Shown here: piece by piece, positions 6,274-59,900 of the stretch | Layout: each line of letters starts with the position of its first letter | Numbering within the stretch: the stretch's first letter is position 1 | Made by a program: the position numbers and the translations under genes | DNA from: Candidatus Bipolaricaulota bacterium | GTDB lineage: Bacteria > Bipolaricaulota > Bipolaricaulia > RBG-16-55-9 > DRXL01 | Assembly (NCBI GenBank): GCA_938091745.1 | Contig: CALLJK010000009.1 | Span: 8,138-72,137 of the forward strand | DNA length: 64,000 nt | Direction of reading: 5' to 3' | The notes under the pieces: generated by a model | What the model saw: the letters and a program-made list of their open reading frames with translations, nothing else | The model's database searches: none | Told to the model about the DNA's origin: nothing

Positions 6274-8163
6274 ATGACGAGCATCGAATTCTTATATGCA
6301 CTCAAAGACTATCTGCCGGGGTTTGAGGCCCGCCCCTCCCAGCAGGCGATGCTCAGGGCGTGCGAGCGCGTCATGGGCACTGGGGGCATCTTGCTCGTCG
6401 AGGCTCCCACTGGCGTGGGCAAGACGTTCGCCTATGCGATCCCAGCTATTCTCTCAGGGAAGAGAACGATCATCTCGACGAACAAGAAAAATTTACAAGA
6501 TCAGCTCATCCAGAAAGACTTGCCCTTGCTGGCACAGGTGAAGAGCTTTCGCTTCGCGGTCGCCAAAGGGTTCTCAAACTATCTCTGTCTCCTAGCGTTA
6601 CACGGGTTTCAGCCGAAGACCCTTACAGAAGCCCAAGAGCATGCGCGACTGCTGCGCTGGGCTGACGAGACTGAAGACGGGGACGTAGATTCGCTCGCGC
6701 CGCCCAGCCCCATCTGGGATGAGATCTGCGCCGACTCTGCAGGATGTCTGAGACAAGATTGCCCCCACTACGATCAGTGCTTTTATTTTCGTGCTCGCGA
6801 GCGATGGTTCGGCGCAGATCTCTTAGTTGTCAACCATGCGCTCTTGGCAGCTGACGCCGCCCTATGGGTCGAAACCGGGCGCGGCGTGCTGCCCGACGCT
6901 GATGTGCTCATCATCGACGAGGCACACACAGTAGAAAGCGCATTTTCAGATGCGTCCACGCAGTGGGTCAGCAGATATACTCTAGAGAATCTCATGCGAG
7001 AGGTCCTCGCCCTTGACCGCCGCTTAGCTGTGAAAGCTCAGCCAGCGCTCTCGCGCTTGCAGACGCTCGCCCCAGCGTTCTTTGAGCAGCTGCGCATGCG
7101 CTATCCCTCAGAGCGCCGTCGCGTTACCGCTGAAGAGTTCGCGCTCCGCGCCGACGCTGAACTCTTGCTCCACGCGCTCGTCCAGCTCCATACAGCGATA
7201 GAAGACTTTTTGGCACAAGAAGCGCCGACACTCTTTGCGCAGAGCGACCAACGGATGCATTTGTTTCGGATTCGCAAGAGTGCGGCGCGGGTCGCCGAAG
7301 TCGGTACTACGCTGCTACGCTTTCTCGAGCCTGCTTCTACGGGCTCTCCTCTCGTGCGCTGGACGGAATCTTCTGAAAATCGTGCGGCGCTCTGCGTCGC
7401 CCCGCTCTACCCTAAAACAGAGCTTCAAGACGGTCTACTCACACGCTTTCAGTCTATTATTTTGACGTCAGCGACGCTGTCGGTCGCGGGGGACTTCAGC
7501 TATATGCAAAATCAATTGGGCGTCGAAGGCGAGACCCTGGCGCTGGAGTCGTCATTTGATTATGCGCGACAAGTCCGGCTTTATATTCACAGACTGCATC
7601 CTCCGGATCGAGGCAGTCTCTCAGAGCATTACTTGGACGAGCTCGCGCGACGCATCGCTCGGGTTATTGAGGGCACTGGTGGTGGGGTGCTCGTGCTCTT
7701 CACCAACGCGCGGGTCTTAGACGAGACTGTCCAGAGACTGCGTGAACGTATCACCCTCCCAATGCTCTGCCAAGGGGAAGGATCCCGCCCTCAGCTCTTG
7801 GCTAAATTTCGGGCCGACGGCAATGCTATCTTATTGGGCTTAGATTCTTTCTGGGAGGGGATCGACGTGCCTGGGCCGGCGCTGCGCGCCGTGATTATTA
7901 CAAAGATCCCGTTTGAAGTCCCCGATGATCCCATTCACGAAGCGCGCGTGGAGCGTCTCCGCGAAGAGGGCCGCGACCCGTTCAACGAATATATTCTCCC
8001 TAGGGCTGCGCTTAAGCTCAAGCAGGGCTTTGGGCGGCTCATTCGCACGGCGACCGACACTGGGGAAGTCCATATCTTAGACGGGCGGGTACTGACGCGC
8101 TCCTACGGCACGAGATTACTCCAAGCGCTGCCCCAGGGGATCGAGATTCGGGTTATAGATTGA
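6274..8163 (+). CDS. dinG: DinG/YoaA family Fe-S helicase
   Basis: EAPTGVGKT, Cys cluster, DEAH, SATL, EGIDVPG, QGFGRLIR. Confidence 0.9.
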   Translation: MTSIEFLYALKDYLPGFEARPSQQAMLRACERVMGTGGILLVEAPTGVGKTFAYAIPAILSGKRTIISTNKKNLQDQLIQKDLPLLAQVKSFRFAVAKGFSNYLCLLALHGFQPKTLTEAQEHARLLRWADETEDGDVDSLAPPSPIWDEICADSAGCLRQDCPHYDQCFYFRARERWFGADLLVVNHALLAADAALWVETGRGVLPDADVLIIDEAHTVESAFSDASTQWVSRYTLENLMREVLALDRRLAVKAQPALSRLQTLAPAFFEQLRMRYPSERRRVTAEEFALRADAELLLHALVQLHTAIEDFLAQEAPTLFAQSDQRMHLFRIRKSAARVAEVGTTLLRFLEPASTGSPLVRWTESSENRAALCVAPLYPKTELQDGLLTRFQSIILTSATLSVAGDFSYMQNQLGVEGETLALESSFDYARQVRLYIHRLHPPDRGSLSEHYLDELARRIARVIEGTGGGVLVLFTNARVLDETVQRLRERITLPMLCQGEGSRPQLLAKFRADGNAILLGLDSFWEGIDVPGPALRAVIITKIPFEVPDDPIHEARVERLREEGRDPFNEYILPRAALKLKQGFGRLIRTATDTGEVHILDGRVLTRSYGTRLLQALPQGIEIRVID

Positions 8164-8578
8164 GCAAGAGCTGCTGGAGCTCCAGCTTGACAGAGGCTTG
8201 CAAAGGAACAGCTTGGTAGGCTTGGTGCTGGTTCTGGATGCACTCCGGCCCGCAGACTCTCTTCTGGCGGCGCGTCAGGAGCGAGACTCCTGAGACAGTA
8301 ACTGGGTAAAGCCACAATGCGAGGCGTGCCCCCGGCACTCGCAGCTCGCGCATGATGCGCTGCGCGGCTTCTGCTCCCCAGCTCACAGATTCTTCCTCAA
8401 AGAGAAACATAGCGAATCCAAAGCTTTCACCAAACTGGGCACGGAGCAATCTCTGGGCGTCTTCGCTCTCAAAGGGCAACAACACGAATCGTTTGCGCAC
8501 GTCGAGCGCGCGCACCAGTCGCGCAAAGCCACGACAGTACGCACATGCGCCGTCGTAGATCAACAGTTTCGTTGCCAC
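8153..8578 (-). CDS. DCC1-like thiol-disulfide oxidoreductase (DUF393)
   Basis: N-terminal YDGACAYC. Confidence 0.8.
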   Translation of the reverse strand: MATKLLIYDGACAYCRGFARLVRALDVRKRFVLLPFESEDAQRLLRAQFGESFGFAMFLFEEESVSWGAEAAQRIMRELRVPGARLALWLYPVTVSGVSLLTRRQKRVCGPECIQNQHQAYQAVPLQASVKLELQQLLLNL

Positions 8579-8599
8579 GCCCTCATTGTAACATACGCT

Positions 8600-9940
8600 T
8601 CAGTAATCTTCTAAATAGCGCTCGATCTCCCAGGGCGTCACCGCGAGACGATACTCTTGCAGCTCTTTTTCTTTGGCCTCGAGATATTTTTCTACAATAT
8701 GTTCGCCAAGCGCAGCTGTGACGACTTTGTCGCGCCGGAGCGCCGCGAGGGCTTCGTCGAGGCTGCCCGGCAGTGCCCCGATGCCTCGCTCTTCGCGCTC
8801 TTCCCTAGTAAGCTCGTAGATGTTCTCCTCGACGGGATCGGGGGGTGTGAGCTTGCGCTTGATCCCATCGAGTCCGCTCACCAAGATCGCGGCATACGCT
8901 AAATACGGGTTACACGAGGGATCGGGGCTGCGCAGCTCGATGCGCGTGGACGTCTCCGGGGTGTTGCTTGCCGGAACGCGAATGAGCGCGGAACGATTAA
9001 TACGAGCCCAACTGATATTCACCGGGGCTTCGTAGCCTGGCACGAGGCGCTTGTACGAGTTCACTAACGGGTTTGCCAGCGCCGTGATCGCCCCAATGTG
9101 CTCGATGATCCCCGCGAGAAACTGCCGAGCCACTTCACTCAGCCCGTAAGGGGCTTTGGGGTCGTAGAAGGCGTTCTCGCTGCCGCGCCACAGCGAGATA
9201 TGCGTGTGCATCCCACTGCCGTTGATCCCCGCGACGGGCTTGGGCATGAACGTCGCATGGAGCCCGTGCTGCATAGCAATCGTCTTGACGACAAAGCGGA
9301 ACGTCACGATATTGTCAGCGGTGCGCAGCACGTCGGCGTAGCGAAAATCTATCTCGTGCTGGCTGGGAGCGACCTCGTGATGGGCAGCTTCGATCTCGAA
9401 GCCCATCTGCTCCAACGCCACGACGATATCGGCTCGGGCTGCTTCCCCACGGTCCAGGGGCGTAAGATCAAAATAGCTCCCGCGGTCATGGAGTTCTAGC
9501 GAAGCGCGCCCGTCGGGGGTGCGGAGGAAGAGAAAGAATTCTGCCTCCGCGCCAGCGTACATGGAGTAGCCGAGTTTTTCGACTTCGGACTGGGCGCGCT
9601 TGAGCACATAGCGCGGGTCTCCCGGAAAGGGCTGCCCATTGGGGAGCAAGACATCACAGATGATGCGCGCTGTGCGCCCGTTCCCCAAGTCCATCGTCCA
9701 GGGGTAGATCGCGAAGGTCATCGGATCGGGCCGCAAGTACATATCCGATTCGGAGATGCGCATGAACCCTTCGATAGACGAGCCGTCGAACGCGATGCCC
9801 TTCTCCAACACAGATTGGAGCCGCCCTGCAGGGATCTCGACATTCTTTGGAATGCCGAAAATATCAGTAAACTGCAAGCGCACGAAATTAATATTGTTAT
9901 CCCTGACAGCTTTTAAGACGTCTTCCTTGTGCTTGCTCAT
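8600..9940 (-). CDS. glnA: Glutamine synthetase type I
   Basis: FDGSSI, HHEVA, ATFMPKP, NGSGMH, RLVPGYEAP. Confidence 0.97.
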   Translation of the reverse strand: MSKHKEDVLKAVRDNNINFVRLQFTDIFGIPKNVEIPAGRLQSVLEKGIAFDGSSIEGFMRISESDMYLRPDPMTFAIYPWTMDLGNGRTARIICDVLLPNGQPFPGDPRYVLKRAQSEVEKLGYSMYAGAEAEFFLFLRTPDGRASLELHDRGSYFDLTPLDRGEAARADIVVALEQMGFEIEAAHHEVAPSQHEIDFRYADVLRTADNIVTFRFVVKTIAMQHGLHATFMPKPVAGINGSGMHTHISLWRGSENAFYDPKAPYGLSEVARQFLAGIIEHIGAITALANPLVNSYKRLVPGYEAPVNISWARINRSALIRVPASNTPETSTRIELRSPDPSCNPYLAYAAILVSGLDGIKRKLTPPDPVEENIYELTREEREERGIGALPGSLDEALAALRRDKVVTAALGEHIVEKYLEAKEKELQEYRLAVTPWEIERYLEDY

Positions 9941-9972
9941 CGTTAGACCCCTTCCCATTCAAAGATGGCAAG

Positions 9973-10001
9973 ATCATAGCACAATTCTCACGTTTTGTCA
10001 A
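9973..10001 (-). promoter_or_regulatory. Sigma70-type promoter of glnA
   Basis: TTGACA-N17-TATGAT. Confidence 0.7.
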
Positions 10002-10150
10002 GTAATCTTGAGAAGATCGAAATATATTCGAAAAAAATCCCATAAAATCGATCTCTTCATATGCTTTTAGAGCAAAAATCGATCATTTGTTATTATAGAT
10101 TTTATGTGACTTATAGCGTATGATAGAACACCAAGCCAAGGAGACCGGGA

Positions 10151-10654
10151 ATGAGACTCTTTTATGCGATAGAGAATAGCCCTCTCGGACACTTATTGTT
10201 AGTTGCGACGGAGCGCGGGCTGTGCGCGGTGCAGTTTGGCAATTCTGTCCGAGAGCTCACGAGAACTCTGCATCGACAGTTGCCCAGGGCTCAGAGGGAC
10301 GAGGCTCGCCTCCGCCCTTGGAGCAGAGCTTTACAAGAATACTTTAAAGGACGTAAGCTGACCATGACGCTCCCCCTAGACGTCCAAGCGACGACGTTTC
10401 AAAGACAAGTCTGGAAGGAACTGCAAAAGATCCCCTATGGTCAGACGCGCTCTTATAGTGAGATCGCTCGTGCGATTGGGCATCCCAAGGCGGCACGCGC
10501 TGTGGCCCGCGCCTGCGCTACTAACCCTGTCTCGATAGTGATCCCATGCCATCGGGTCATCAGAAAAGACGGTTCTCTTGGGGGCTACGGCGGCGGGATC
10601 GCGCGCAAGCGCGCGCTGCTCTCTTTAGAAAGGGCTCAAGGAGAGACAAGATGA
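10151..10654 (+). CDS. ogt: Methylated-DNA--protein-cysteine methyltransferase
   Basis: IPYGQTRSY, IPCHRV. Confidence 0.93.
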   Translation: MRLFYAIENSPLGHLLLVATERGLCAVQFGNSVRELTRTLHRQLPRAQRDEARLRPWSRALQEYFKGRKLTMTLPLDVQATTFQRQVWKELQKIPYGQTRSYSEIARAIGHPKAARAVARACATNPVSIVIPCHRVIRKDGSLGGYGGGIARKRALLSLERAQGETR

Positions 10655-11655
10655 GTCAGACGCTTGCAATTAAGACGGAGCATCTAGGCCGCATCTATCA
10701 GATCAAGCGCAAGCGCGGCGAGAGCGGCCCCGCGACGCTCGTCGCCTTAGAGGACGTCAACCTCGAAGTGCGCCAAGGCGAGCTCTTCGGGCTGCTTGGC
10801 CCTAACGGTGCCGGCAAGACAACACTCATAAAGATCTTGACGACGCTACTTACCCCTACCAGTGGGCGCGCGTTTGTCGACGGCATCGACGTTGTTGAAA
10901 ACCCTCAAGAAGTCCGGCGGCGCATCAATATGGTCTCTGGCGGAGAGTCTTGTGGGTATGGGCTGCTCACCGTCGAGGAGAACTTGTGGATGTTCACGCA
11001 GTTTTATGGGCTCGATTTTAAGACCGCTCGCGAGCGCATTCAGTCTATGCTCGAAGTCGTAGGATTGGCTGACCGCGCCAAGACCAAGGCGTACCATCTG
11101 TCGACGGGCATGAAGCAGAAGATGAACTTCGCCCGCGGGTTTCTCAACGACCCGCAGATTCTCTTCTTAGACGAGCCGACGCTGGGGCTAGACGTGCAGA
11201 CATCGAGAATCTTAAGAGATTTTGTGAAGCGCTGGGTGCGCGAGCGCCCCGGGAAGACGATCTTACTCACGACTCATTATATGGCTGAGGCCGACGAACT
11301 CTGTGATCGCGTGGCAATTATAGATCAGGGCAGGATCTTAGCATGCGACACCCCAGCGAATCTCAAGAGGAGACTCCAAGGGGCTTCGATCTTTAAGCTC
11401 CAGACGACACCGCTGGACACGCTCGAGCACTTTAAGCAGCTGCCCGGAGTCAGTCAGTTTGCGGGCCATCGGCGCAATGGGCACACCGAACTGAATTTTA
11501 TTCTTGAAGACGAGAACGCTTTAGTCAAAGTCTTAGATGCTGTTCAAGCTAAGGGCGGGCACTTATTATCGCTGGAGAAGCGCGAGCCGACGCTCGAAGA
11601 CGTCTTTATTCACCTAGTTGGGCGCGGCTTGAGCGACGAGGAGAATCCGACCTAA
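10651..11655 (+). CDS. ABC-2 type exporter ATP-binding protein
   Basis: GPNGAGKT, LSTGM, LDEPT; ATGA overlap with ogt. Confidence 0.92.
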   Translation: MSQTLAIKTEHLGRIYQIKRKRGESGPATLVALEDVNLEVRQGELFGLLGPNGAGKTTLIKILTTLLTPTSGRAFVDGIDVVENPQEVRRRINMVSGGESCGYGLLTVEENLWMFTQFYGLDFKTARERIQSMLEVVGLADRAKTKAYHLSTGMKQKMNFARGFLNDPQILFLDEPTLGLDVQTSRILRDFVKRWVRERPGKTILLTTHYMAEADELCDRVAIIDQGRILACDTPANLKRRLQGASIFKLQTTPLDTLEHFKQLPGVSQFAGHRRNGHTELNFILEDENALVKVLDAVQAKGGHLLSLEKREPTLEDVFIHLVGRGLSDEENPT

Positions 11656-11703
11656 CCCCCAGGCTCCCCTCCCACTTTTAGGGGAGGGGCAGGGGGAGAG
11701 GTC
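11649..11703. repeat. BoxC/REP-like nested palindrome, copy 1
   Basis: GACCTAACCCCC..CCCCTCCC-loop-GGGGAGGGG..GGGGGAGAGGTC. Confidence 0.6.
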
Positions 11704-11708
11704 TCAGT

Positions 11709-12533
11709 ATGAAAAATTTTCGACGCGAACTGATGGTCTTCCTGCGCACGGTGATCGGCCGGGCCTATCCCCGACTGATCGGGCTGCAGCGCGAGCGAAG
11801 CTGGCTCTTCTTTGAGATTTTTCTGCCATTGCTGGGCACAGCCGCGTTTGTCTACATCTATCGGGCGTTGGGGGCTAAGCCCGAATTTACGGGTTTTGTC
11901 GTACTCGGTGGCGCGATGACCGCGTACTGGATGAACGTGCTGTGGAGCATGGCCACGCAGTTCTACTGGGAGAAGGAGACTGGGAACCTCGCGCTCTATC
12001 TCATCGCGCCCACGTCGCGCATGGCGATTCTGCTGGGGATGGCCTTTGGGGGCATGGTGGCCACGACGGTACGTGCTCTGGCTGTCTTAATATTGGGCTC
12101 GCTTGTCTTTCGCGTGACTTTTACGGTGAGCAACTGGGGAGCTTTGTTGCTCGTCTTCTTCTTCACGTTAGTCGCTCTCTACGGATTGGGGATGATCTTC
12201 GCGTCGGCGTTCTTGCTCTACGGGCGCGAAGCGTGGCACATGGCCAATCTATTGCAAGAGCCCGTGTTCTTGTTGTCGGGGTTTTACTTTCCCATAAAGA
12301 GTTTAGGCTTTTGGATCTCTGCTGGGGCGTCGCTCATCCCTATAACTTTGGGGTTGGACGCGATGCGACAATTGCTCTATCCCCAAGCAGGCTGGGGATT
12401 TCTCGACGTGGGCATTGAGACGACGATCTTAGCAGTCTTGAGTGTCGTCTTTCTCATCGCGGCGCATCGGATGCTTCTATGGCTTGAGAACGTGGCGCGC
12501 CGTGAGGGACGACTCACTGTGAGGGGACAATAA
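11709..12533 (+). CDS. ABC-2 type permease
   Basis: About 6 TM segments, EKETGNL, LSGFYFP. Confidence 0.88.
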   Translation: MKNFRRELMVFLRTVIGRAYPRLIGLQRERSWLFFEIFLPLLGTAAFVYIYRALGAKPEFTGFVVLGGAMTAYWMNVLWSMATQFYWEKETGNLALYLIAPTSRMAILLGMAFGGMVATTVRALAVLILGSLVFRVTFTVSNWGALLLVFFFTLVALYGLGMIFASAFLLYGREAWHMANLLQEPVFLLSGFYFPIKSLGFWISAGASLIPITLGLDAMRQLLYPQAGWGFLDVGIETTILAVLSVVFLIAAHRMLLWLENVARREGRLTVRGQ

Positions 12534-13399
12534 TGACTGTGCTTCAGCGAGAGTCATGGCGCGAGAGCCTGCGCAGCTTAAAAGTCGCCACATGGCTGGG
12601 CTGGCAGATCGAATCGAACTGGACTGATCCGTTTCTCTTTGCCGTCTACTCGCTGATCAAGCCTATCGCCGGGGCGATGATCTTGGTCGTGATGTACTTG
12701 GTCGTCTCCGGCGGCCAGACGGACAACCCGATCTTCCCGTATATCTATCTGGGGAACGCATTCTATATCTACGTGGGCTCGGTGCTCATGGGGATCAGTT
12801 ACGCCGTGATCGAAGACCGTGAGCACTACGGCGTTCTGAAATATATTTACGTCTCGCCGATCCAAGTCTATTTTTATCTGTTGGGGCGCGGCGTCGCCCG
12901 CACGCTGACAGGCACAATCGCGGTGATCATCACGTTGGTGTTTGGGGTGCTTGTCTTCAAGCTTCCCGTAAATTTTCTAAAAATGAATCACGCGCTCTTT
13001 TGGCCGGTCTTTCTGATTGGGCTGGCGGGGTTAGCGCTTGTAGGGATTCTTCTAGCGGGGCTGACGCTCATCACAGCAAGACACAATTACTTCATGGGCG
13101 AGGCCGTCGCTGGAGCGTTGTATTTGCTCTGTGGCGCGGTCTTCCCGCTCGATGTGCTCCCCAAGGTTCTTCAGTATATCGGGCTGGGGCTGCCCATGAC
13201 CTATTGGCTCGAAGGGGTGCGCCGGGCAATGCTCGGCACAAGCGTGAGTCCGGTGCTTGCGCCCTTTACTCACGAGACGATCTTAATAATTCTCTTCAGC
13301 TCGACGCTCTGTGTCGGGGCGATCTCGCTGGGTTTTTATCGCTGGTGCGAGCGCCGCGCCAAGGAGAAGGGGCTTATAGATATGCAGACGATGTATTGA
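12533..13399 (+). CDS. ABC-2 type permease
   Basis: About 6 TM segments, GAVFPLDVLP. Confidence 0.88.
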   Translation: MTVLQRESWRESLRSLKVATWLGWQIESNWTDPFLFAVYSLIKPIAGAMILVVMYLVVSGGQTDNPIFPYIYLGNAFYIYVGSVLMGISYAVIEDREHYGVLKYIYVSPIQVYFYLLGRGVARTLTGTIAVIITLVFGVLVFKLPVNFLKMNHALFWPVFLIGLAGLALVGILLAGLTLITARHNYFMGEAVAGALYLLCGAVFPLDVLPKVLQYIGLGLPMTYWLEGVRRAMLGTSVSPVLAPFTHETILIILFSSTLCVGAISLGFYRWCERRAKEKGLIDMQTMY

Positions 13400-13413
13400 T
13401 ATAATAGGGTACT

Positions 13414-13938
13414 ATGAGCACTTTCGTGAAGATCCTGATCGTGATCGCGTTCATGGCTGTGCCGGCCCTGGCCCAACAGCCGCTCGTGGTGAAGGTCTCT
13501 TGTCGCGATAGCCAGACGCTCGCCATCGAGCCGGATCGTCTTGATTCGCTCATCTTGCGGGCGACGGGGCGGACCGTCCAGTGGGAGCTGGAGACCGTGG
13601 GCTGTCCCCAGACGGTCTCGCGTGTCGAGATTCGCTTTGCCCAGACGAGCCCCTTCGGCGAGACCCCCGCAGATAAAGAGCTCGTCGTGCCGGAGCTGCC
13701 CTCGCCGCTGCCGGAGAGCGTCCCTCTTGTCAGCCGCGAGATTTCCGTTGCTGGGGAGCATCGCTACGAAATCTTGCTCATGGATGCTGAGGGCAACGTC
13801 TTAAGCAAGCAACAAGGGCGGATCTCCGCACGCGCCATCGCGCCGGGGATGACTCTTCCTAGTTTGCTTTTGGCTGGCTTGGTCGTGGGGCTCTTCTTCT
13901 TGTTGATCCGACGTCGCCTCAGCGCGCTCTCGGCATAA
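13414..13938 (+). CDS. Secreted protein with C-terminal sorting-like signal (candidate exosortase substrate)
   Basis: Signal peptide (ALA-Q); C-terminal APGMTLPS + TM helix + RRR. Confidence 0.65.
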   Translation: MSTFVKILIVIAFMAVPALAQQPLVVKVSCRDSQTLAIEPDRLDSLILRATGRTVQWELETVGCPQTVSRVEIRFAQTSPFGETPADKELVVPELPSPLPESVPLVSREISVAGEHRYEILLMDAEGNVLSKQQGRISARAIAPGMTLPSLLLAGLVVGLFFLLIRRRLSALSA

Positions 13939-52859: not shown

Positions 52860-55502
52860 TTAAAGCCCTACCCGAAACTCGCGCTCGAAGCGCACGCTCC
52901 AGCCTACCTGTGCGCCCTCTTGCGTATTTACCCACAAGGGATATTCTACATACACAATGGGCGATCCGTAAAACCCGAGCGTCACGCCAAGACCCGCCTC
53001 GGCGCGCACAACGTGTTGCTCGGCCTTCAGAATAGCTACGTTCACAAATGCAATCGCGCCCACTGAGAACGGGATTGGCCCAATGTCGATCTTGTTAAGC
53101 GTCGGGATGGGCAGGCGCAGCTCGTTAGACTGCGCGAAGACCCAGTCGCTCTGAAGGTCAAATGCGCGAAAGCCCGCAAAATCTTTAAGCCGAAAATCGC
53201 GCTCTTCGGGAGCGCGCCCCTCGCGCCAGCCCCATACGGTGCGCTGCACCCAGAGCGTCTGCCACCACAGGCGCGTGCGAATCTCGTGACTCCACGAGAA
53301 CTTCTGAAATGCATACTCCCTGCCCCACACGTTCAGACCCAGCTTATAGCTTAGAGCAAGCCGTGCGACCCGCGAGCGGCGTTCGTAACTCATCCCTATG
53401 GAGAAAAGACGCCCCGGATCGCGCGCGACGTTATAGCGATTATGATACAAAGCGTTGAGCGAGAGCTGCACGTCTGTCCTATCGCGGTGCCAACGGAAGT
53501 GAATCACCCCGTCACCCGCGAAGATATGACCTTCATCTTTTTGGGCGAAGCCCCATTCTGAAGTGCAGCGATCCGCGAAGCAGAAGTTGCTCTTCAAGCT
53601 GTGCTGAAAGACAATTCTCTCAAGGCCAAACGCCCACCCTACGTGTATATGCTCCAATCGTATGCCCAAGATCAGCCCATCGTCTGAACGACCGTGGAGC
53701 ATCCCGTGATCGAGCCACGGGCTGAGATCAAGACCCTTGGGAGCAAAGTTATCCGAGCGATCCAAATCGGGCAGCGCGTGATCGGGGTCGAGCGTCACGG
53801 ACTTTATGGGTTTGTCAGAGATGAACGTGAGCGTTCCCCGTCGGTCAAGCATCTCCCAGCGCTGGCGGACTTTCGTGCCGTCGGCGAGCGTCGCCTCGAC
53901 GTCCACGGGGATGCGCATCTCGCCCCGCTGACGCACCATCACGCGCGTCACGTATCTGTTCTCAATCTTCTGTGTCCTCATTCCCTCGAGAGTCACGTCG
54001 AGCGTCTTGGTGCTGGTGAGCCACTGCGCGAAGAACTCTCTCAGATCGCGCCCGCTGACATCTTCAGCTGTTTTTATGAAATCTTCGGCTGTGACTTGCC
54101 GGTAGCGATAGCGCCGATAGTACTCTTGCATAATCTGATCAAATGTTTCCGTGCCCACTACGTTTTCTAACGCAAAGAGCAGGAGCGCGCCCTTCTGGTA
54201 GGGCAGCACGGTTTTGCCCGATGGGACTTTATGGAGCGGGGTAGCAAGCGGAGCTTCACGGCCCTCGCGGGCGACGCGTGTGTAGCTGCTTAGCATTTCT
54301 GCACGCCCGTTGCTCTCCTTCAGCATCTCGGTGAGCAAACCCAGACCCTGAGCTTTTAACCAAAGAGTATTCAAAGAGTTTGCGTCCTTCCCGTACTTGT
54401 GCTCGATGTAGCTCGTTTCAGCAAACGTGGCAAAGCCCTCGTCGAGCCAAGTCTCCTCGAGCTGATTGTTCATAAACATCCCGTAGAACCATTGGTGCGC
54501 CGTCTCATGGGCCGTGACGCTGTCTAAGATAGTAAACAGCTCAGGGAGGCGATAGAGCATATAGCTCTGCTGAATGATCTGAGGGTACTCCATAGCGAAG
54601 CCAAAGCCGCGAATTTCAGCGACTGTAAAATTAGAGTACGGATAGCGCCCGAAGCGCTTGCTGAAATATTCAAGAGCGTCTTTAGCGTACTGGGCAGCAC
54701 GTTTGCCCGCTGCAGCGTCTTCGGGGAAGTACAGAGAGACAATCGTGACGTCCTCCCATTGGACGATCTCGCTTTGATAACGGGCGTCGGCGACCCACGC
54801 AAAGTCGTGCACGTTATCAGCGATATATGTGAGCGTCTTGGTGCCGTCGGGGTTCACAGTCTCACGATAGAGCTGGCCCGTCGCGCCGACGACGAAATTA
54901 TTGGGCACGGTCAGTTCTACAGAATAGTGCGCGAAGTCTTCATAGGGTTCGCTCGCGCCGAACGCATGGGCGACGTCGGGGTGCCAGCCCTTCTGATCAT
55001 AGACGCTCAGTTTGGGGTACCACCAAGAGATATAGTAATTGCCCTGATCGTGCCCGAGACGCTCGAGCGCATGGGGAATCTTAACGATAAACTTTATTGT
55101 GATCTCGACGGTCTGATCGGGGGCGATGGGCGTCTCCAGTGCGATCTTCAGAATCGTGTCATCAATAGAGTACTGAGCTGCTTTGCCGTCGAGCTGCAGC
55201 TCTTGCACGAAGAGATACCCATAATCGGGGCCGTTGGGGAAGAGCATATCGAAAGAATTTGCGCCCATCTCGCGGGCTTGGACGCTCTCTTCAACAAAGC
55301 GATTGGGCCATAGGTGCAGATAGAGTTCTGTGAGGGGCTTGTCGGCCTTGCTGGTGAAGAGAATTCTTTCGTTGCCGTAGAGTTTATGTTCTTTGATGTC
55401 GAGCCGTGCTTGGATCTCGTAGGAAATCTCGTTGGGGAGAGCAAGAACCGTCGTCCCAAGCCATGCCAGAGATACGAGAGCGAGAACAAGACTGTTGCGC
55501 AT
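52860..55502 (-). CDS. Secreted M1 aminopeptidase with C-terminal beta-strand-rich domain
   Basis: VHDFAW, AMEYP, HETAHQWF, WLDEG, YQKG. Confidence 0.9.
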   Translation of the reverse strand: MRNSLVLALVSLAWLGTTVLALPNEISYEIQARLDIKEHKLYGNERILFTSKADKPLTELYLHLWPNRFVEESVQAREMGANSFDMLFPNGPDYGYLFVQELQLDGKAAQYSIDDTILKIALETPIAPDQTVEITIKFIVKIPHALERLGHDQGNYYISWWYPKLSVYDQKGWHPDVAHAFGASEPYEDFAHYSVELTVPNNFVVGATGQLYRETVNPDGTKTLTYIADNVHDFAWVADARYQSEIVQWEDVTIVSLYFPEDAAAGKRAAQYAKDALEYFSKRFGRYPYSNFTVAEIRGFGFAMEYPQIIQQSYMLYRLPELFTILDSVTAHETAHQWFYGMFMNNQLEETWLDEGFATFAETSYIEHKYGKDANSLNTLWLKAQGLGLLTEMLKESNGRAEMLSSYTRVAREGREAPLATPLHKVPSGKTVLPYQKGALLLFALENVVGTETFDQIMQEYYRRYRYRQVTAEDFIKTAEDVSGRDLREFFAQWLTSTKTLDVTLEGMRTQKIENRYVTRVMVRQRGEMRIPVDVEATLADGTKVRQRWEMLDRRGTLTFISDKPIKSVTLDPDHALPDLDRSDNFAPKGLDLSPWLDHGMLHGRSDDGLILGIRLEHIHVGWAFGLERIVFQHSLKSNFCFADRCTSEWGFAQKDEGHIFAGDGVIHFRWHRDRTDVQLSLNALYHNRYNVARDPGRLFSIGMSYERRSRVARLALSYKLGLNVWGREYAFQKFSWSHEIRTRLWWQTLWVQRTVWGWREGRAPEERDFRLKDFAGFRAFDLQSDWVFAQSNELRLPIPTLNKIDIGPIPFSVGAIAFVNVAILKAEQHVVRAEAGLGVTLGFYGSPIVYVEYPLWVNTQEGAQVGWSVRFEREFRVGL

Positions 55503-55565
55503 GATGGCCTCCTGAGTGCTTTTAAGATTTTCATTTCTTTTGTTTGTAGTTTGTCAAGCTGGTTT

Positions 55566-55625
55566 AGTTCAACACATGCTCCGTGCCTTCTCCAGCCGCG
55601 AGCGCGCTAAAGCTACTACCTGCCT
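55566..55625 (-). repeat. Direct repeat R3: diverged copy of the methyltransferase 3' end
   Basis: Encodes VVALARSRLEKARSMC*; 30/35 nt identical to 56932-56966. Confidence 0.85.
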
Positions 55626-55924
55626 CACGTTGCACGGTACTGGATACGACGCCGCAGAGCTTCATAAAGACCTTCGCGCGGTCCGATCATAATGATGAGC
55701 ACTAGCCGATCCTTAGGATAAATCTCGTAGACGATGCGATACTGGATGCCTTTATGGCTAAAATGATAAGACCAGAGTCCTTTGAGGTCATGAGAGAGCG
55801 CTTCAGCTTGCCCGGGATTTTGCTTGATTTTGGCAAAATGTACTTTACGAAGCTGGGTGACTACTGAGGGATCAAGCTTGCGAATATCTTTAGCAACGGC
55901 GCTGTGGAACCGTAGTGTGTACAC
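55625..55924 (-). CDS. RelE/ParE family toxin
   Basis: KDIRKL, LSHDLKGLWS, YRIVYEI, IGPRE. Confidence 0.88.
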   Translation of the reverse strand: MYTLRFHSAVAKDIRKLDPSVVTQLRKVHFAKIKQNPGQAEALSHDLKGLWSYHFSHKGIQYRIVYEIYPKDRLVLIIMIGPREGLYEALRRRIQYRAT

Positions 55925-55927
55925 TGT

Positions 55928-56119
55928 TTAGAATAATTCTCCTTCGGTCAGGGCCTTCCCCGCTCTGAGCTCCGCTCGCGCTTTCTTCCATCGTTCTTTG
56001 AGTTCCCTTTTGAGCTTGGGATTTAAGAGTATAAGCAAGGTCTCCCGCTCCCCAGGCGTGAGCTGCTTTAAAGCTTGGGCCAGCTCTTCCACCTTCAGCT
56101 CCACCTTGACTCGAGGCAT
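55928..56119 (-). CDS. Putative antitoxin of the RelE toxin
   Basis: 63 aa, AAGGAGG RBS, ends ALTEGELF, 3 nt before the toxin. Confidence 0.7.
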   Translation of the reverse strand: MPRVKVELKVEELAQALKQLTPGERETLLILLNPKLKRELKERWKKARAELRAGKALTEGELF

Positions 56120-56167
56120 AGTTTCCTCCTTGTGGGAACCAAGTATGCGTAGCATCCGATCATTTTT

Positions 56168-56225
56168 AGTTTATCACACACTCTGGGCTTTCTCCAGCCG
56201 CGAGCGCACCAGCGCTACTACTGTC
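56168..56225 (-). repeat. Direct repeat R2: diverged copy of the methyltransferase 3' end
   Basis: Encodes VVALVRSRLEKAQSV*; 37/44 nt identical to 56932-56975. Confidence 0.9.
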
Positions 56226-56227
56226 TT

Positions 56228-56623
56228 CTATGGCTTCAGCAGCCGCACGAACCCCTCTTGCTCGAAATGGCGATCGGTAGTCAGTGCTTCGGTGATGCCA
56301 CGAGCGCGCATGAGCACAAAACTGACTGCATCACACAGGGAATAGGTCCTGTCCGGCCGTGCCCGCAACAATGCCAACGCTGAGCGATGTAAATCCTCAT
56401 CTACCCAAACAACTTCCACATGTGGGTTGTCCAGCAAGTCCGTTGCAAACGCTAAAACATCAACGATGTTTAAGCCACGCGCCCGACACAAGGGTATGAA
56501 CTCAGCTAGGACGTAACTGTGTATCAGCCTTAAAGGAGTAGCCTTGAAAAACGTCACGGCATCCGAATGACGGACATCACTTGCATCGAAATAGCAGAGC
56601 AGTCCCGATGTATCAAGCAGCAT
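56228..56623 (-). CDS. vapC: VapC PIN-domain toxin
   Basis: LDTSG, VLAE, SLCDAVSF, TTDRHF. Confidence 0.92.
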   Translation of the reverse strand: MLLDTSGLLCYFDASDVRHSDAVTFFKATPLRLIHSYVLAEFIPLCRARGLNIVDVLAFATDLLDNPHVEVVWVDEDLHRSALALLRARPDRTYSLCDAVSFVLMRARGITEALTTDRHFEQEGFVRLLKP

Positions 56624-56904
56624 TAACTCCCCTCGTGCGTGCTCCCGTATTCAAGCGCTAAATCCGAGTCGATGCTGTCATTGTCAGCGGAACGAGGGTT
56701 ACTGCTGCGTCCTTTGCCTGCGTGCTGCAGTAGACGCTTCCACGCTTCACGGGTTTCTTCCTCTGTTAACTTCCGACGCGGCTTAGGCCCGTATTTGACA
56801 AGAAACTCAAGCACATATTGCTCAACCGTCCCTCCATACTTTTCCGCCATCTGCCGACATGCCTCGTAAACCTCATCAGACACTCTAACAGTCAAGGACT
56901 TCAT
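56623..56904 (-). CDS. VapB-like antitoxin (RHH-like N-terminus)
   Basis: LTVRVSDEVYE; TAATG overlap with vapC. Confidence 0.75.
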   Translation of the reverse strand: MKSLTVRVSDEVYEACRQMAEKYGGTVEQYVLEFLVKYGPKPRRKLTEEETREAWKRLLQHAGKGRSSNPRSADNDSIDSDLALEYGSTHEGS

Positions 56905-56937
56905 TGCTTTCCACTCCTTTTCTATGGCCTCAGTTTA

Positions 56938-59900
56938 TCACACACTCCGTGCCCTCTCCAGCCGCGCCCGTACCAAATTCACCACCGCCTCGTAGACCGC
57001 CTCGCGCTCGCCAGGCGTCAAACCCAACACGTCAAACACCACGTCGTCCAGGGCGCGACGGTCGGGCTGCTGCAATTCGAATTCAATCGGCCCAACATCC
57101 CGTTTACGCAAGCGTGACAGAACCTCTTTCAATTCACCAAGCTTTAGAAGGAGCGTTGCTGGCCTGGGAACTGGAATTTGCCGGTACTCGATCGGATCAA
57201 CCTTGAGCAATCCGCCACCTAGACTGCTTCTTCCCACAAGTTCAAGGTGTAGCCAAAAGTAAGCCGAATTCAAAACTGCCCAAAAAGGTAGTAAATCGTT
57301 CGCCTGCCCCAGCCGAAACTCCGTATAGCTATTGCTGCTAACTGCCTTTGCTTCGTTAATAGCGCAGAAGAAGATTGACCCCACGCCGCACGGAGCGAGC
57401 AGCTCGGCAGGCCTGCGTACTCTAAAGCGATACCACTCCTTCTTGCCTACAAACGTGTTCCTTGCGTTCAGTCCCATGCGCTCGCCATGCTCTATGTATC
57501 GTAACACTCTAGTTCCTTTGAGTTCGCTCCGCTGTAAATCGACGCTCAGGAAGTAACGGTCGATGCAAGCCGACGTGATAACAAACTTGTTGAACCCCCG
57601 CGTCTTCATGAGGCCCTCATAAAGGAATTCGCGTTCGATACCGAATTTCCTGGCCGTCTCCTTTGGAACGTAAAAAAAGTCGTTTGCGCCTGTTGGCCGT
57701 CCTTCGTTTACCTCGGCGATGTCGCCCAGGCGCACGAGCTTGCCTTTGCCCTTTTCGAGGATGGTGAAGAAGATCTCCGGTGCGCGCAGGTATTTCCCGC
57801 CCCATTTGTTGGCTTCATAGCGTTTCTCGACTTTCACCAGCGGCCCGCTCAGCTTTCGCTTGCGCTTGGGATGCTCCTCGGCCTCTTCGCCCTCAGGCTC
57901 TTCGCTGACTAAGCCCTCTTCGTATAGCTCCTGCTGGCTCTTGGCGACCACCCGGAAGTGCGACGCTCTATGCCTTTCTGCAACAGATTCGATCTCTTTA
58001 AAGACCGAAGCAGACAGCACCTCTTCAAAGGGGGCCTTGAACATCACAAACCGCGCGGTCTTATTCAGCCCATCAGAACGCTTGTCATCCGGCGGCCCCA
58101 ACAGCGCGATGATCGTGTTCACGTCGGCCTGCGCAAACGAGCGCTTCTTCTCGTTGTCCAAGATGAGCTTTACATGCCCGTGCTTGAGCAGAAACTCTTG
58201 CAGGTCGCGCCCGTAGCCCACATCAAGCCACGAGTTAGACGTGATGAAACAGAACGATCCCTGGTTATTGAGCAAAGAGAGCCCGTGCAGGTAGAAGTAG
58301 ATATAGAGATCGCTCTTGCCGTCGGGCTTTCTCTTTCTGAAGAAGTGCGGCCAGATCTCGCACGCCGACTGCTGCAACTTGCTCTTGTACTCGGCTTTGA
58401 GGGTACGCCACTCGGCGGGGCTGAAGTCCTGCTCGCGCAACAGCGGCGGAGCGATCTTCTCTTGGCGCACATATGGAGGATTGCCGATCACGATGTCAAA
58501 GCCCGCTTTGTCGCCCTCGAAGATCTCCACAAAGGCCACGTCCCAAATGAATGGCACGTCTTGCACACTTCTGAGAGCTGTGAGAGCTTGGTGGATACGC
58601 TCAAGCTGTGCTTGGAGTTCGTCCCGCTGGTGCTTCCACTCCTGCACACGCAGCTCAAGCTTTGCGTCTTCAATGTCTATGCCTTCAAGAGTTTTGAGCT
58701 TTGATGGGTGCTCGATGCGTCGGTTGAGCACTACGATCTCGTTTTGGAGAGCGTGTGCCTTGCTCTCTAAAATCTCGCGGAAGAGCTGATACTCCGCGTG
58801 CTTCAGTTCGCCCTCGGAGCGATACGCCGAAGGGTCGTCAGGATCGGCCCGGTAGAACTTGAGCTTTTCGGCCTTGAGCCGGGTGAGCTTGCCCTTGAGC
58901 GCGTTAGGGATGTCGAGATGCCTGCGATGAAGCGCAAAGTTGATCCCGGCTAGCTCTTGCACAAGGCTGTCGCCGGGGCGGACTTTGAACGAGAGATTCG
59001 GTAAGAGCGGGCGAAACTTCAGCTCGGCGGGCTTAAGCTCCGTCTCGATAACGAGTTGCAGCCACAGCCGTAATTCTGCAACGTGCACGGCCCAGGGCAT
59101 GACGTCCACACCATAGAGTTGCTCACCGATAATCCGCCGACGACGCTCATAGGGCGTCTCCTCAAAGCCCAACTGCTGATTGGCTCTGGCTTGCAGATCG
59201 TCGAGCACGAGGAGCATTCCCACGAGAAACGATCCTGACCCACACGCCGGATCGCAGATTGTGACATTGCGCAGAAGGGCATTGAGCGTGGGCCAGAGGT
59301 TCTGCTGCGCGATCGCCTCGTCGGCTTGATTCTTCTCTTCCGGCTCATAGGCGAAGACGAGATCATAAAGCAACGGCTTATAGGCTTCACCGAGCTGATT
59401 GGCCAGCCAGTCAACCAAGCTCAGACGGCACATCAGGTCAATCTCGACTCTGGGCGTGTAAAAGATGCCCGCCGTGCCGCGGAGATCCTCTTCGGTGAGC
59501 CCCTCCGATGTGATGTTGATGAGGCTTTCGTAGACCTTGCCGATCATTTCCGGGTCAACGGCGACTTCCTGATCGAGCGGGGTGTTCTCAGAGATCGTGA
59601 AGTTATATCGCTCAAAAAAGCCTGGCGTCGTGCCGTCGAAGCGATCAAAGAGCATTTCGAAGATGCTATCGGGCAGCTCGACGGAATATTTCTCATCGAG
59701 TTCGTTGCGGGTAAAGAGTCCACCGTTGAGAAAGGGAGCCAGTTGGAGCGCGGCGTTCAACTCCTTCGGCAGATACGGCTTGGGCGAGAATCTGTTATTG
59801 AATGCTTCAAAGAAGAGCACGCCCAGCCAGCGCTTGAAGAAAGCATCTTTCTCGCCGGAGGCACGATAGGCATCCCAGAAGCTCTTGATGAACCGACGAT

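Follow-up and report, generated by a model that had tools for sequence, protein, structure and literature searches.

Defence islands and arrays rich in toxin–antitoxin (TA) genes are usually ascribed to integrases, transposases or recombination between flanking core genes. In the DNA described here, a 64,000-nucleotide (nt) stretch of Candidatus Bipolaricaulota contig CALLJK010000009.1 (hereafter the window), cassette boundaries are marked by the conserved 3′ end of a defence gene itself, an Eco57I-like DNA methyltransferase (MTase), partial copies of which (tails) follow the intact gene in direct orientation and bound two small TA units. The arrangement recurs in bacteria of many phyla, the cassettes between the tails vary among relatives, the extra tails read as pieces of other MTase alleles, and arrays survive in genomes without the MTase. 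Such arrays would represent a new route to defence islands and provide a case in which gene capture in the absence of a dedicated recombinase can be tested.

The closest described relatives are the composite islands of the staphylococcal cassette chromosome (SCC), in which tandem elements lie behind rlmH (orfX) and 18-nt direct repeats hold its last codons (PMC7029136). The likeness extends to three features of that account: tandem elements stand behind an MTase gene, the repeats contain its last codons and stop, and the gene stays intact (PMC7029136). In the window, too, last-codon direct repeats demarcate tandem elements behind an MTase 3′ end. By contrast, SCC has fixed 18-nt sites, Ccr serine recombinases on at least one element and a size of kilobases to tens of kilobases, whereas window-type arrays have repeats of 32–156 nt with variable left ends, units of 0.4–2.8 kb and no recombinase that we found. 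The targets also differ: rlmH encodes a ribosomal RNA MTase, and window-type arrays sit at a restriction-type DNA MTase of many phyla. Some SCC-type elements, the pseudo-SCC elements, lack a recombinase of their own. No Ccr large serine recombinase was found in any cassette, and the window genome (G000; 1.74 Mb in 32 contigs, 91.5% complete) has only one Resolvase open reading frame (ORF), of 191 amino acids (aa). The first-pass annotation of this DNA knew of no described system of this form. This stands insofar as no description of MTase-tail-delimited arrays was found in PMC Creative Commons papers or bioRxiv, one elsewhere being possible, and direct MTase-tail repeats bracketing cassettes are apparently undescribed; it does not stand in full, as the SCC islands are similar (PMC7029136).

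Two further systems share parts of this anatomy. Phage 21 and the element e14 both reside in Escherichia coli icd. In the e14 case the element is reported to supply a replacement 3′ end, the displaced icdC stays on the far side as a pseudogene, and most differences between the two ends are synonymous (PMC13626634). The window likewise has replacement and displaced 3′ ends, with no integrase in its 602- and 764-nt units; e14, however, is one 15-kb prophage that encodes an integrase and is excised upon SOS induction, whereas window-type arrays string together several tiny, integrase-free cassettes and contain as many as five tails. In integrons, including sedentary chromosomal ones, TA and defence genes are reported to dominate the cassette cargo (bioRxiv 10.1101/2024.07.02.601686). 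Like integron cassettes, those of the window type are small, co-oriented, promoter-poor and tightly packed, differ in content between relatives, and each end in a repeat of variable length with a conserved end. Unlike integrons, the array has no adjacent intI, attI or attC hairpin, and its repeat is the coding sequence of a neighbouring gene. No IntI gene lies next to the array, where the flanking ORFs are the MTase and an M1 peptidase, and the earlier statement that the window lacks an integrase was borne out: the one Phage_integrase (PF00589) match of G000 and its Resolvase-domain ORF are both on contig C24, and the window is on C9. The comparison with an integron-type site failed, in that R1–R3 (the three tails of the window), on both strands, folded no better than shuffled controls (z −0.93 to +1.94), which rules out an attC-like or repetitive extragenic palindromic (REP)-like hairpin for the window.

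Islands at transfer RNA (tRNA) 3′ ends and cargo-only remnants such as tycheposons leave repeated partial copies of the 3′ end of their target gene through serial stacking; tycheposon-type islands have tRNA or transfer-messenger RNA targets and element-encoded integrases. The pair of a PLD-SNF helicase and a Cj0031/Eco57I-like type II restriction–modification (R-M) enzyme is listed among loci with programmed inversions (PMC9881135). There, inverted partial copies switch specificity (PMC9881135), whereas the copies described here are direct, comprise the last 10–50 codons and bracket foreign genes. For Xer dif/pdif sites (28 nt, with 11-nt inverted arms and a 6-nt spacer), no inverted symmetry appeared in the folds or repeat scans, the genome's own dif not being part of the comparison. 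Since neither the enzymes nor the sites that define integrons, SCC and integrase-bearing elements were found, the array lies outside those families, which it would appear to resemble in outcome.

Three tails and two TA cassettes in the window

Every gene of the array region lies on the minus strand. The MTase gene (56938..60681, 1247 aa; Pfam Eco57I, MmeI_Mtase and N6_Mtase; PADLOC REase_MTase_IIG) is predicted to encode an N6-adenine DNA MTase of the Eco57I/MmeI type, and its domains suggest a type IIG-like enzyme akin to Cj0031, DrmMI and PglX. The gene ends in the functional tail R1 (56929..56985), composed of the last 15 codons, the stop and 9 nt, with a 32-nt core at 56932–56963. A repeat scan returned one family of 3 direct 57-nt copies (R1, R2 and R3) spaced 764 nt and 602 nt apart; relative to the reference copy R3, R2 is 81% and R1 72% identical. 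R2 (56165..56221; 15–17 codons, stop and 9 nt; core 56168–56199) and R3 (55563..55619; core 55566–55597) are orphan partial tails, all three copies being on the minus strand, and R3 is beginning to decay (its translation ends in SMC). R1 translates into the true end of the MTase ORF, VVNLVRARLERARSV, R2 into VVALVRSRLEKAQSV and R3 into VVALARSRLEKARSMC, each followed by a stop, and an invariant 12-mer occurs at exactly 55589, 56191 and 56955. The copies, the 12-mer, the peptides and the toxin stop codons abutting the next repeat are as the first-pass annotation described them; both stops lie a few nt from the repeat.

Each inter-repeat unit holds one TA pair, as had been proposed and as Pfam matches and gene order indicate for these putative toxins. 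Cassette 1, the 764-nt unit, consists of vapB1 (56623..56904, 93 aa), an antitoxin-like ribbon-helix-helix (RHH) protein with a weak NikA-like/RHH match, and vapC1 (56228..56623, 131 aa), a PIN-domain putative toxin (Pfam PIN, E 1.5e-8). The end of vapB1 and the start of vapC1 overlap by 1 nt at 56623, a layout typical of VapBC with its predicted toxin second. Cassette 2, the 602-nt unit, consists of a 75-aa putative antitoxin (55928..56155), which has no Pfam or PADLOC match and whose role is suggested by its place upstream of a ParE-like gene, and that gene itself (55625..55924, 99 aa), a putative toxin of the RelE/ParE superfamily (Pfam ParE-like_toxin, E 6.4e-12). A small gene followed by a ParE/RelE-fold gene is the ParDE/RelBE layout. 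All four genes are on the minus strand.

Two objections to the array were examined. A genome-wide dispersed repeat is ruled out, because the tail occurs in just 3 copies in the whole 1.74-Mb assembly (two further BLAST matches, over 19–24 nt, have E values of 0.07 and 1.7). Misassembly is ruled out by agreeing independent contigs together with like architecture in unrelated assemblies. Runs X1–X4 were compared as assembled contigs, and uncovered parts in X3 and X4 carry no weight. A 39.8-kb contig of X1, possibly the source of the window DNA, spans 54800–58000 with 0 differences, and a 2.1-kb contig of X2 covers 55639–57739 and reproduces R1, vapBC, R2 and parE with 4 differences. In run X3, from a different study, one contig joins 56214 to 56980 and skips 765 nt, with a short side of 27 nt; this joint hints weakly at the form expected without vapBC. 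In X2 and X4, which are marine metagenomes, contig depth over the MTase tail (window 56940–57066) rises several-fold, and many contigs stop at the tail, with unrelated loose ends on both sides. The rise in depth and the loose ends suggest that the tail stands in many different contexts there, at ≥85% identity.

Variable cassettes between conserved tails

The array sits between orthologous core genes, both on the minus strand. The upstream flanking gene, which forms the left anchor of the hotspot, is a PD40/DPPIV-like β-propeller gene, whose 3′ end occupies 63783..64000; positions 64000–63873 are 78% identical to 9823–9696 of locus L103 from genome G013, the end of the 958-aa PD40 gene of that species. 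The downstream flanking gene, the right anchor, encodes an 880-aa M1-family peptidase (52860..55502; Pfam Peptidase_M1), with 81.5% DNA identity to its counterpart in G013; the proteins of G004 and G002 are 73–81% identical to it. In G007 and G015, too, tails come after the PD40 orthologue. When the 136-nt MTase end was searched as DNA against the 184 genomes of the class, 16 of them, G000 included, had tail copies, among them 10 of the 17 other genomes of its own family. A search of 41 relatives with the C-terminal 500 aa of the MTase gave long matches only in G000, G002 (69% identity, cut by the contig end), G035 (51%) and G007 (39/34%), so that most tails in these relatives are orphans.

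At this site, G000 has the order helicase–MTase–R1–vapBC1–R2–parDE–R3. G013 has five tails and neither MTase nor helicase; its order is PD40, an Mrr_N fragment, tail, vapBC2, tail, XRE-M78 plus DUF4411, tail, DUF2283, short tail, vapBC1 and a long degenerate tail. The order in G004 is an Mrr end, tail, vapBC1 and a long degenerate tail; in G002, a tail preceded by a GC hairpin, vapBC1 and a degenerate tail; and in G007 a tail directly follows PD40. That is to say, the number, kind and order of cassettes vary between conserved tails at one chromosomal site, which is the variation that the first-pass annotation had expected of its model. The vapBC1 unit is common to four species and in three of them stands directly before the terminal tail, which is followed by the M1 peptidase gene. 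Its vapC1 orthologues are 68–78% identical in G002 and G004 (tblastn) and 77% identical at the DNA level in G013, and in all three genomes a vapB1 orthologue adjoins vapC1. The ParE unit with one extra tail occurs, among the sister species, in the window only, where it lies distal to the shared vapBC1; this contradicts the earlier idea that cassettes enter serially at the functional tail, the most recent arrival lying next to the MTase. A ParE cassette 85% identical over 490 nt exists in G017, with a tail core ahead of it and another upstream neighbour. No tail lies near the more distant ParE homologues of G016, G004 and G014, so cargo exists outside arrays too.

Beyond the lineage, 80 loci from one-genome-per-species contigs were scanned in six frames with the last 20 residues of the MTase; 58 besides the window have a recognisable functional tail, and the other 22 are cut by a contig end or have no passing tail. 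At a score ≥40, 10 extra tails lay on the strand of the MTase in the 385,881 nt downstream of it, just 1 in the 588,573 nt upstream of it on that strand, and 0 in the 974,454 nt of the complementary strand. They fall in 7 of the 58 loci: L009, L012, L028, L033, L039, L055 (2 extra) and L083 (3 extra, and 5 tails in all, a fourth extra tail scoring 32). L056 was added through a DNA alignment (81% over 62 nt), which brings the arrays to 8 of 58 loci, whereas the candidate extra tail of L023 (score 30) was unconfirmed, its DNA alignment matching 13 nt only. Extra tails with variable cargo at homologous MTase loci are therefore what the first-pass annotation's own test returned. In local alignments every extra tail is homologous to the MTase end of its own locus, the homology beginning at −25 to −152 nt relative to the last sense codon and breaking off around the stop codon (−14 to +13 nt). 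The gene after a tail mostly begins within 0–30 nt, at times overlapping the stop; stop/start overlaps are visible in L055, L083 and L028. Among viral contigs, 7 loci with MTase relatives had no tail at score ≥36, and a metagenome scan with the C-terminal 500 aa of the MTase returned 4 loci only, each with a single tail or none.

The term TA cassette array, used in the first-pass annotation, fits the window; elsewhere the cargo is broader and includes Mrr, HNH, DUF3800, AAA ATPases, GNAT plus ASCH, AlbA_2 and Y1_Tnp-like proteins. L083 carries (i) DUF3800, (ii) an XRE-HTH/M78 peptidase with DUF4411, (iii) a DUF1016_N fragment with UPF0175 and (iv) a Y1_Tnp-like fragment that has no Pfam match and resembles the Y1_Tnp-like cargo of L055 and L056 by inspection. 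L055 carries a Y1_Tnp-like protein, an AAA_15/21 ATPase with a partner, and DUF4258 with DUF2283; L056 carries a Y1_Tnp-like protein, L012 HNH, L009 an Mrr_N protein, L028 a 23S_rRNA_IVP-like protein, and L033 and L039 a GNAT protein with ASCH. DUF3800, Y1_Tnp-like, AlbA_2, Mrr, HNH and DUF2283 recur as cargo in arrays of distant phyla, and the XRE-M78 plus DUF4411 pair is found in the arrays of both G013 and L083, at 52% identity. Repeated partial MTase tails are thus a signature by which small unannotated defence genes could be recognised in metagenomes.

Origin of the tails and proposed gain of cassettes

The MTase tail belongs to a large family. With the C-terminal 448 aa of the MTase, 2828 proteins were found at E ≤0.001 among 8000 scored candidates; in the best 120 of the 2828, the body is ~50% identical and the last ~45 residues (...PDRRALDEVVFDVLGLTAGEREAVYEAVVNLVRARLEKARSV) are nearly invariant. 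In 59 functional tails from many phyla, codon positions 1 and 2 are conserved, position 3 is free (most 0.3–0.6), and there is no conservation past the stop codon. Because third codon positions vary and nothing is kept after the stop, a universal DNA attachment site is ruled out across these 59 loci. Diverged alleles nevertheless share ~135 nt of coding DNA at the gene end, ~70–90% similar.

Within the lineage, the tails are more uniform. The core set comprises 19 tails from 10 genomes with ≤8 mismatches to a 32-nt core, GGCTGGAGAAGGCACGGAGCGTGTGATAGACT, which starts at codon −8 and reaches 9 nt beyond the last sense codon. Its columns are mostly 0.8–0.99 conserved, with a few down to 0.5, and conservation drops to 0.3–0.4 right after ...ACT; leftward of the core it fades gradually. 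The core ends in an exact GATARACT in 13 of the 19 tails, and an intact MTase is attached to one of them only (R1). The left ends of tail copies are spread from 32 to 156 nt. An Mrr 3′ end, junction and tail are 86% identical between G004 and G019, a genome from a different family of the same order, and the cassettes after them differ; the tail ahead of vapBC1 has three left ends and three upstream neighbours in G002, G004 and G013. The left end thus goes with the preceding cargo, which makes the unit a set of genes plus a downstream partial tail. For the earlier proposal that the tail is an attachment or recombination site, this means that cassettes do accumulate there, and that a fixed attachment point does not agree with left ends of 32–156 nt. 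In L103 (G013; 9300–9445 and 8535–8680), the likeness of the tails flanking vapBC2 extends a further ~27 nt beyond the left end of their MTase-derived part; this stretch forms the end of a truncated Mrr_N ORF in one copy and holds the VapC stop codon in the other. A short ATAGT motif is seen at left tail junctions in G004/G019, G003 and G013.

A sharp right end raises the possibility that a site-specific recombinase acts in trans, encoded elsewhere or on a visiting mobile element, and inserts and excises cassettes at the tail core, in the manner of integrons or SCC; the core in the lineage would be these 32 nt ending 9 nt after the last sense codon. The identical right end, the conservation of the core of orphan tails in 10 genomes with its drop after ...ACT, its better conservation between families than that of the cassette flanks, the single orientation of all extra tails, and the tight packing of cassettes that carry no mobility genes, a trait shared with integron cassettes and recombinase-less pseudo-SCC elements, are all as expected of such an enzyme. 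No recombinase, however, lies in or next to any array examined, the single tyrosine recombinase and the one resolvase of G000 sit on another contig, and the tail has neither DNA-level conservation across phyla nor a hairpin or inverted symmetry beyond shuffles (z −0.9 to +1.9). The G013 repeat also continues 27 nt past the MTase-derived sequence. A Y1 (RayT/IS200-like) transposase as the array enzyme is ruled out, as none was found in G000 and Y1_Tnp has no link with arrays among the 41 relatives; Y1_Tnp occurs as cargo, in L055, L056, L083 (a fragment) and G010. On balance, we consider a recombinase supplied in trans unlikely.

The codon pattern of the extra tails bears on where they come from. 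Random change yields roughly one synonymous difference in four, and by a rough estimate a local duplication with a drifting second copy would give about 40%. An in-frame comparison of 13 extra tails with the functional tails of their loci, the R3 row being left out, gave 142 identical codons, 78 synonymous and 50 non-synonymous differences, and the eight best-kept tails had 51 synonymous versus 13 non-synonymous differences. Individual ratios reach 9:1 in L083 T2, 9:2 in L055 T2 and 7:1 in L028; in the window, R2 differs from R1 by 6 synonymous and 4 conservative codon changes out of 15. The replacement residues in the best-kept tails are common in the family. The excess of synonymous differences indicates that these tails diverged under selection as protein ends, and the 51:13 excess rules out in-situ duplication followed by decay for the well-kept tails, which by their codons are pieces of other functional MTase alleles, as had been suggested for R2 and R3. 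Displaced tails would in this way preserve the earlier R-M alleles of a locus. The tails with stops, frameshifts or internal deletions (L033, the upstream tail of L039, tE of G013 and window R3) are older. The L039 copy just named (6364–6423) lies on the same strand 6.6 kb upstream of the MTase, ahead of an AAA_21 ATPase with a weak DUF4276 partner, and may be a leftover of an earlier array or MTase.

Tails of different functional alleles would also be left if the MTase, or its specificity-determining C-terminal half, were replaced serially, each incoming allele bringing its tail and downstream neighbour and stranding the truncated tail of the previous resident; the cassettes would then not be independently mobile, and the array would be a fossil record. 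Variable left ends are as expected of imprecise right-hand junctions, and L055 and L056 share a Y1_Tnp-like first cassette while their MTases are 68% identical. Turnover of specificity is known in this enzyme class, with programmed inversions reported in Eco57I/Cj0031-like genes that adjoin PLD+SNF genes (PMC9881135). Against serial replacement, the window-only ParE unit is not MTase-adjacent; the 20-odd left ends all lie in the last 156 nt of a 3.7-kb gene, although random illegitimate joints should leave longer fragments too, and the 400 nt inspected ahead of each tail held no longer MTase fragment; one Mrr cargo–tail junction precedes different cassettes in two families; and the tails bracketing the XRE-M78 plus DUF4411 pair belong to different MTase subfamilies in G013 and in L083. 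We therefore regard replacement of the MTase as an improbable source of the arrays.

We favour, with confidence divided about evenly, a tail-delimited cassette array in which recombination between the tails adds, removes and reorders units, guided by homology and not by a dedicated recombinase gene of the locus. The hotspot would arise from the last ~45 codons, ultra-conserved, of a widespread Eco57I-like MTase that is paired with a PLD-SNF2 helicase-nuclease. Each unit is a short co-oriented operon followed by a truncated MTase 3′ end (32–156 nt) from another functional allele. We infer that it enters by a single crossover between the resident tail and a segment of genes plus partial tail, either circular (Campbell-type) or linear in an "ends-in" form, and a reverse crossover between tails would remove it. 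Such a crossover would produce the anatomy that is observed, namely a sharp right end, a cargo-specific left end, n cassettes with n + 1 tails, and an intact MTase. TA cargo, which resists deletion, would help arrays to outlive the MTase.

Homology is favoured because diverged alleles are alike in the tail and in no other stretch, because all left ends fall inside the conserved block, because the G013 repeat runs 27 nt beyond the MTase sequence, as homology-based or duplicative events would predict and a tail-confined site would not, and because no recombinase gene is present in the cassettes of the window or the other arrays examined, or beside them. Several points weigh against it. (i) The exact R1–R2 identity runs are just 12 and 15 nt, which is short for RecA-type recombination given its minimal homology lengths. 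(ii) The sharp shared right end and the 32-nt core kept across families would also fit a site-recognising enzyme. (iii) Homologous exchange accounts for shuffling and not for how a gene first acquires a partial 3′ tail. (iv) In a gene of 3.7 kb, the left ends are all confined to the final 156 nt, though this does fit homology in a conserved block. (v) No circle or gain event was seen directly in the contigs, which are unable to show rare forms, and the differences between sister species are readable as gain or as loss.

The tails may, instead, be kept mainly as expression signals, with a promoter-like core in the lineage and a Shine-Dalgarno sequence with stop/start coupling elsewhere; deletions that remove the tail signals would then unleash the toxin. 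The core is readable as TGGAGA (−35-like) followed, after a spacer of 17 nt, by TGnTAGACT (extended −10-like), and, read by eye, stops exactly at the end of the −10-like hexamer, where conservation ends. A ribosome-binding site and a start codon lie within about 15–30 nt of every core. Among 56 loci, a same-strand ORF (≥50 aa) opens ≤10 nt from the MTase stop in 30 (mechanical ORF calls, in which GTG within GTGTGA inflates the −4 class), and the codons of ...KARSV often spell AGGAG, present in the last 15 nt of the MTase in 21; these positions suggest that the MTase end also serves for translation initiation of the gene that follows. The stop/start overlaps of L055, L083 and L028 and the persistence of orphan tails in genomes without an MTase match (C-terminal 500-aa query) agree with such a role. 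A consensus promoter scan, however, called no core (8 of 12 positions matched, 9 required), the spacer is as conserved as the hexamers, and expression accounts for retention only, not for the multiplication of tails or their allelic origins. As the principal reason for the tails we hold this very improbable, and it is compatible with homologous recombination between them.

A broader proposition, which we put forward tentatively and with rather less than even confidence, is that the arrays constitute a pan-phylum, integron-like system of TA and small defence cassettes that is bounded by an MTase coding tail, has no locus-encoded integrase, draws on a shared pool whose cassettes are captured, reordered and lost, and runs on homology alone or on an enzyme that recognises the tail core. 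If so, arrays would survive as orphan tail arrays after the MTase is lost, which would explain orphan MTase fragments before TA operons in genomes where no such MTase is found.

The helicase gene and further arrays

Between the PD40 gene and the MTase gene lies the gene of its partner (60728..63763, minus strand), a 1011-aa protein with a PLD (HKD) nuclease and an SNF2 helicase part (Pfam PLDc_2, SNF2-rel_dom and Helicase_C) that matches PADLOC C3a139 "HKD+Snf2" (E 8.6e-63). An Eco57I/MmeI-domain N6-adenine MTase beside a helicase-nuclease is the gene pair of a type IIG-like R-M module. None of the BREX/DISARM core genes (PglZ, BrxC, DrmA/B) lies between the flanking core genes of the window, and the module is therefore not a full BREX or DISARM system. 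In L055 (8588–11731), the PLD-SNF2 gene is downstream of the MTase, and three tails, four cargo operons and a HicAB pair stand between them; the cassettes there are thus inside the two-gene module.

Locus L107 (G010:C2, 5985–10500) has orphan tails behind a type I R-M Methylase_S gene and an HNH gene, in the order tail, AlbA_2/HATPase_c_4 protein, tail, Y1_Tnp-like protein and weak tail; G010 gave no long Eco57I-like MTase match with the C-terminal 500-aa query. In L056, a perfect 28-nt palindrome lies right after the MTase stop (13478–13530), beside a Y1_Tnp (RayT-like) gene. The L056 MTase (9668–13480) contains several in-frame GAIHELPL-type insertions relative to its 68%-identical L055 homologue, and peptides of this type recur ahead of the second tail; these insertions look like REP-type elements invading a coding sequence.

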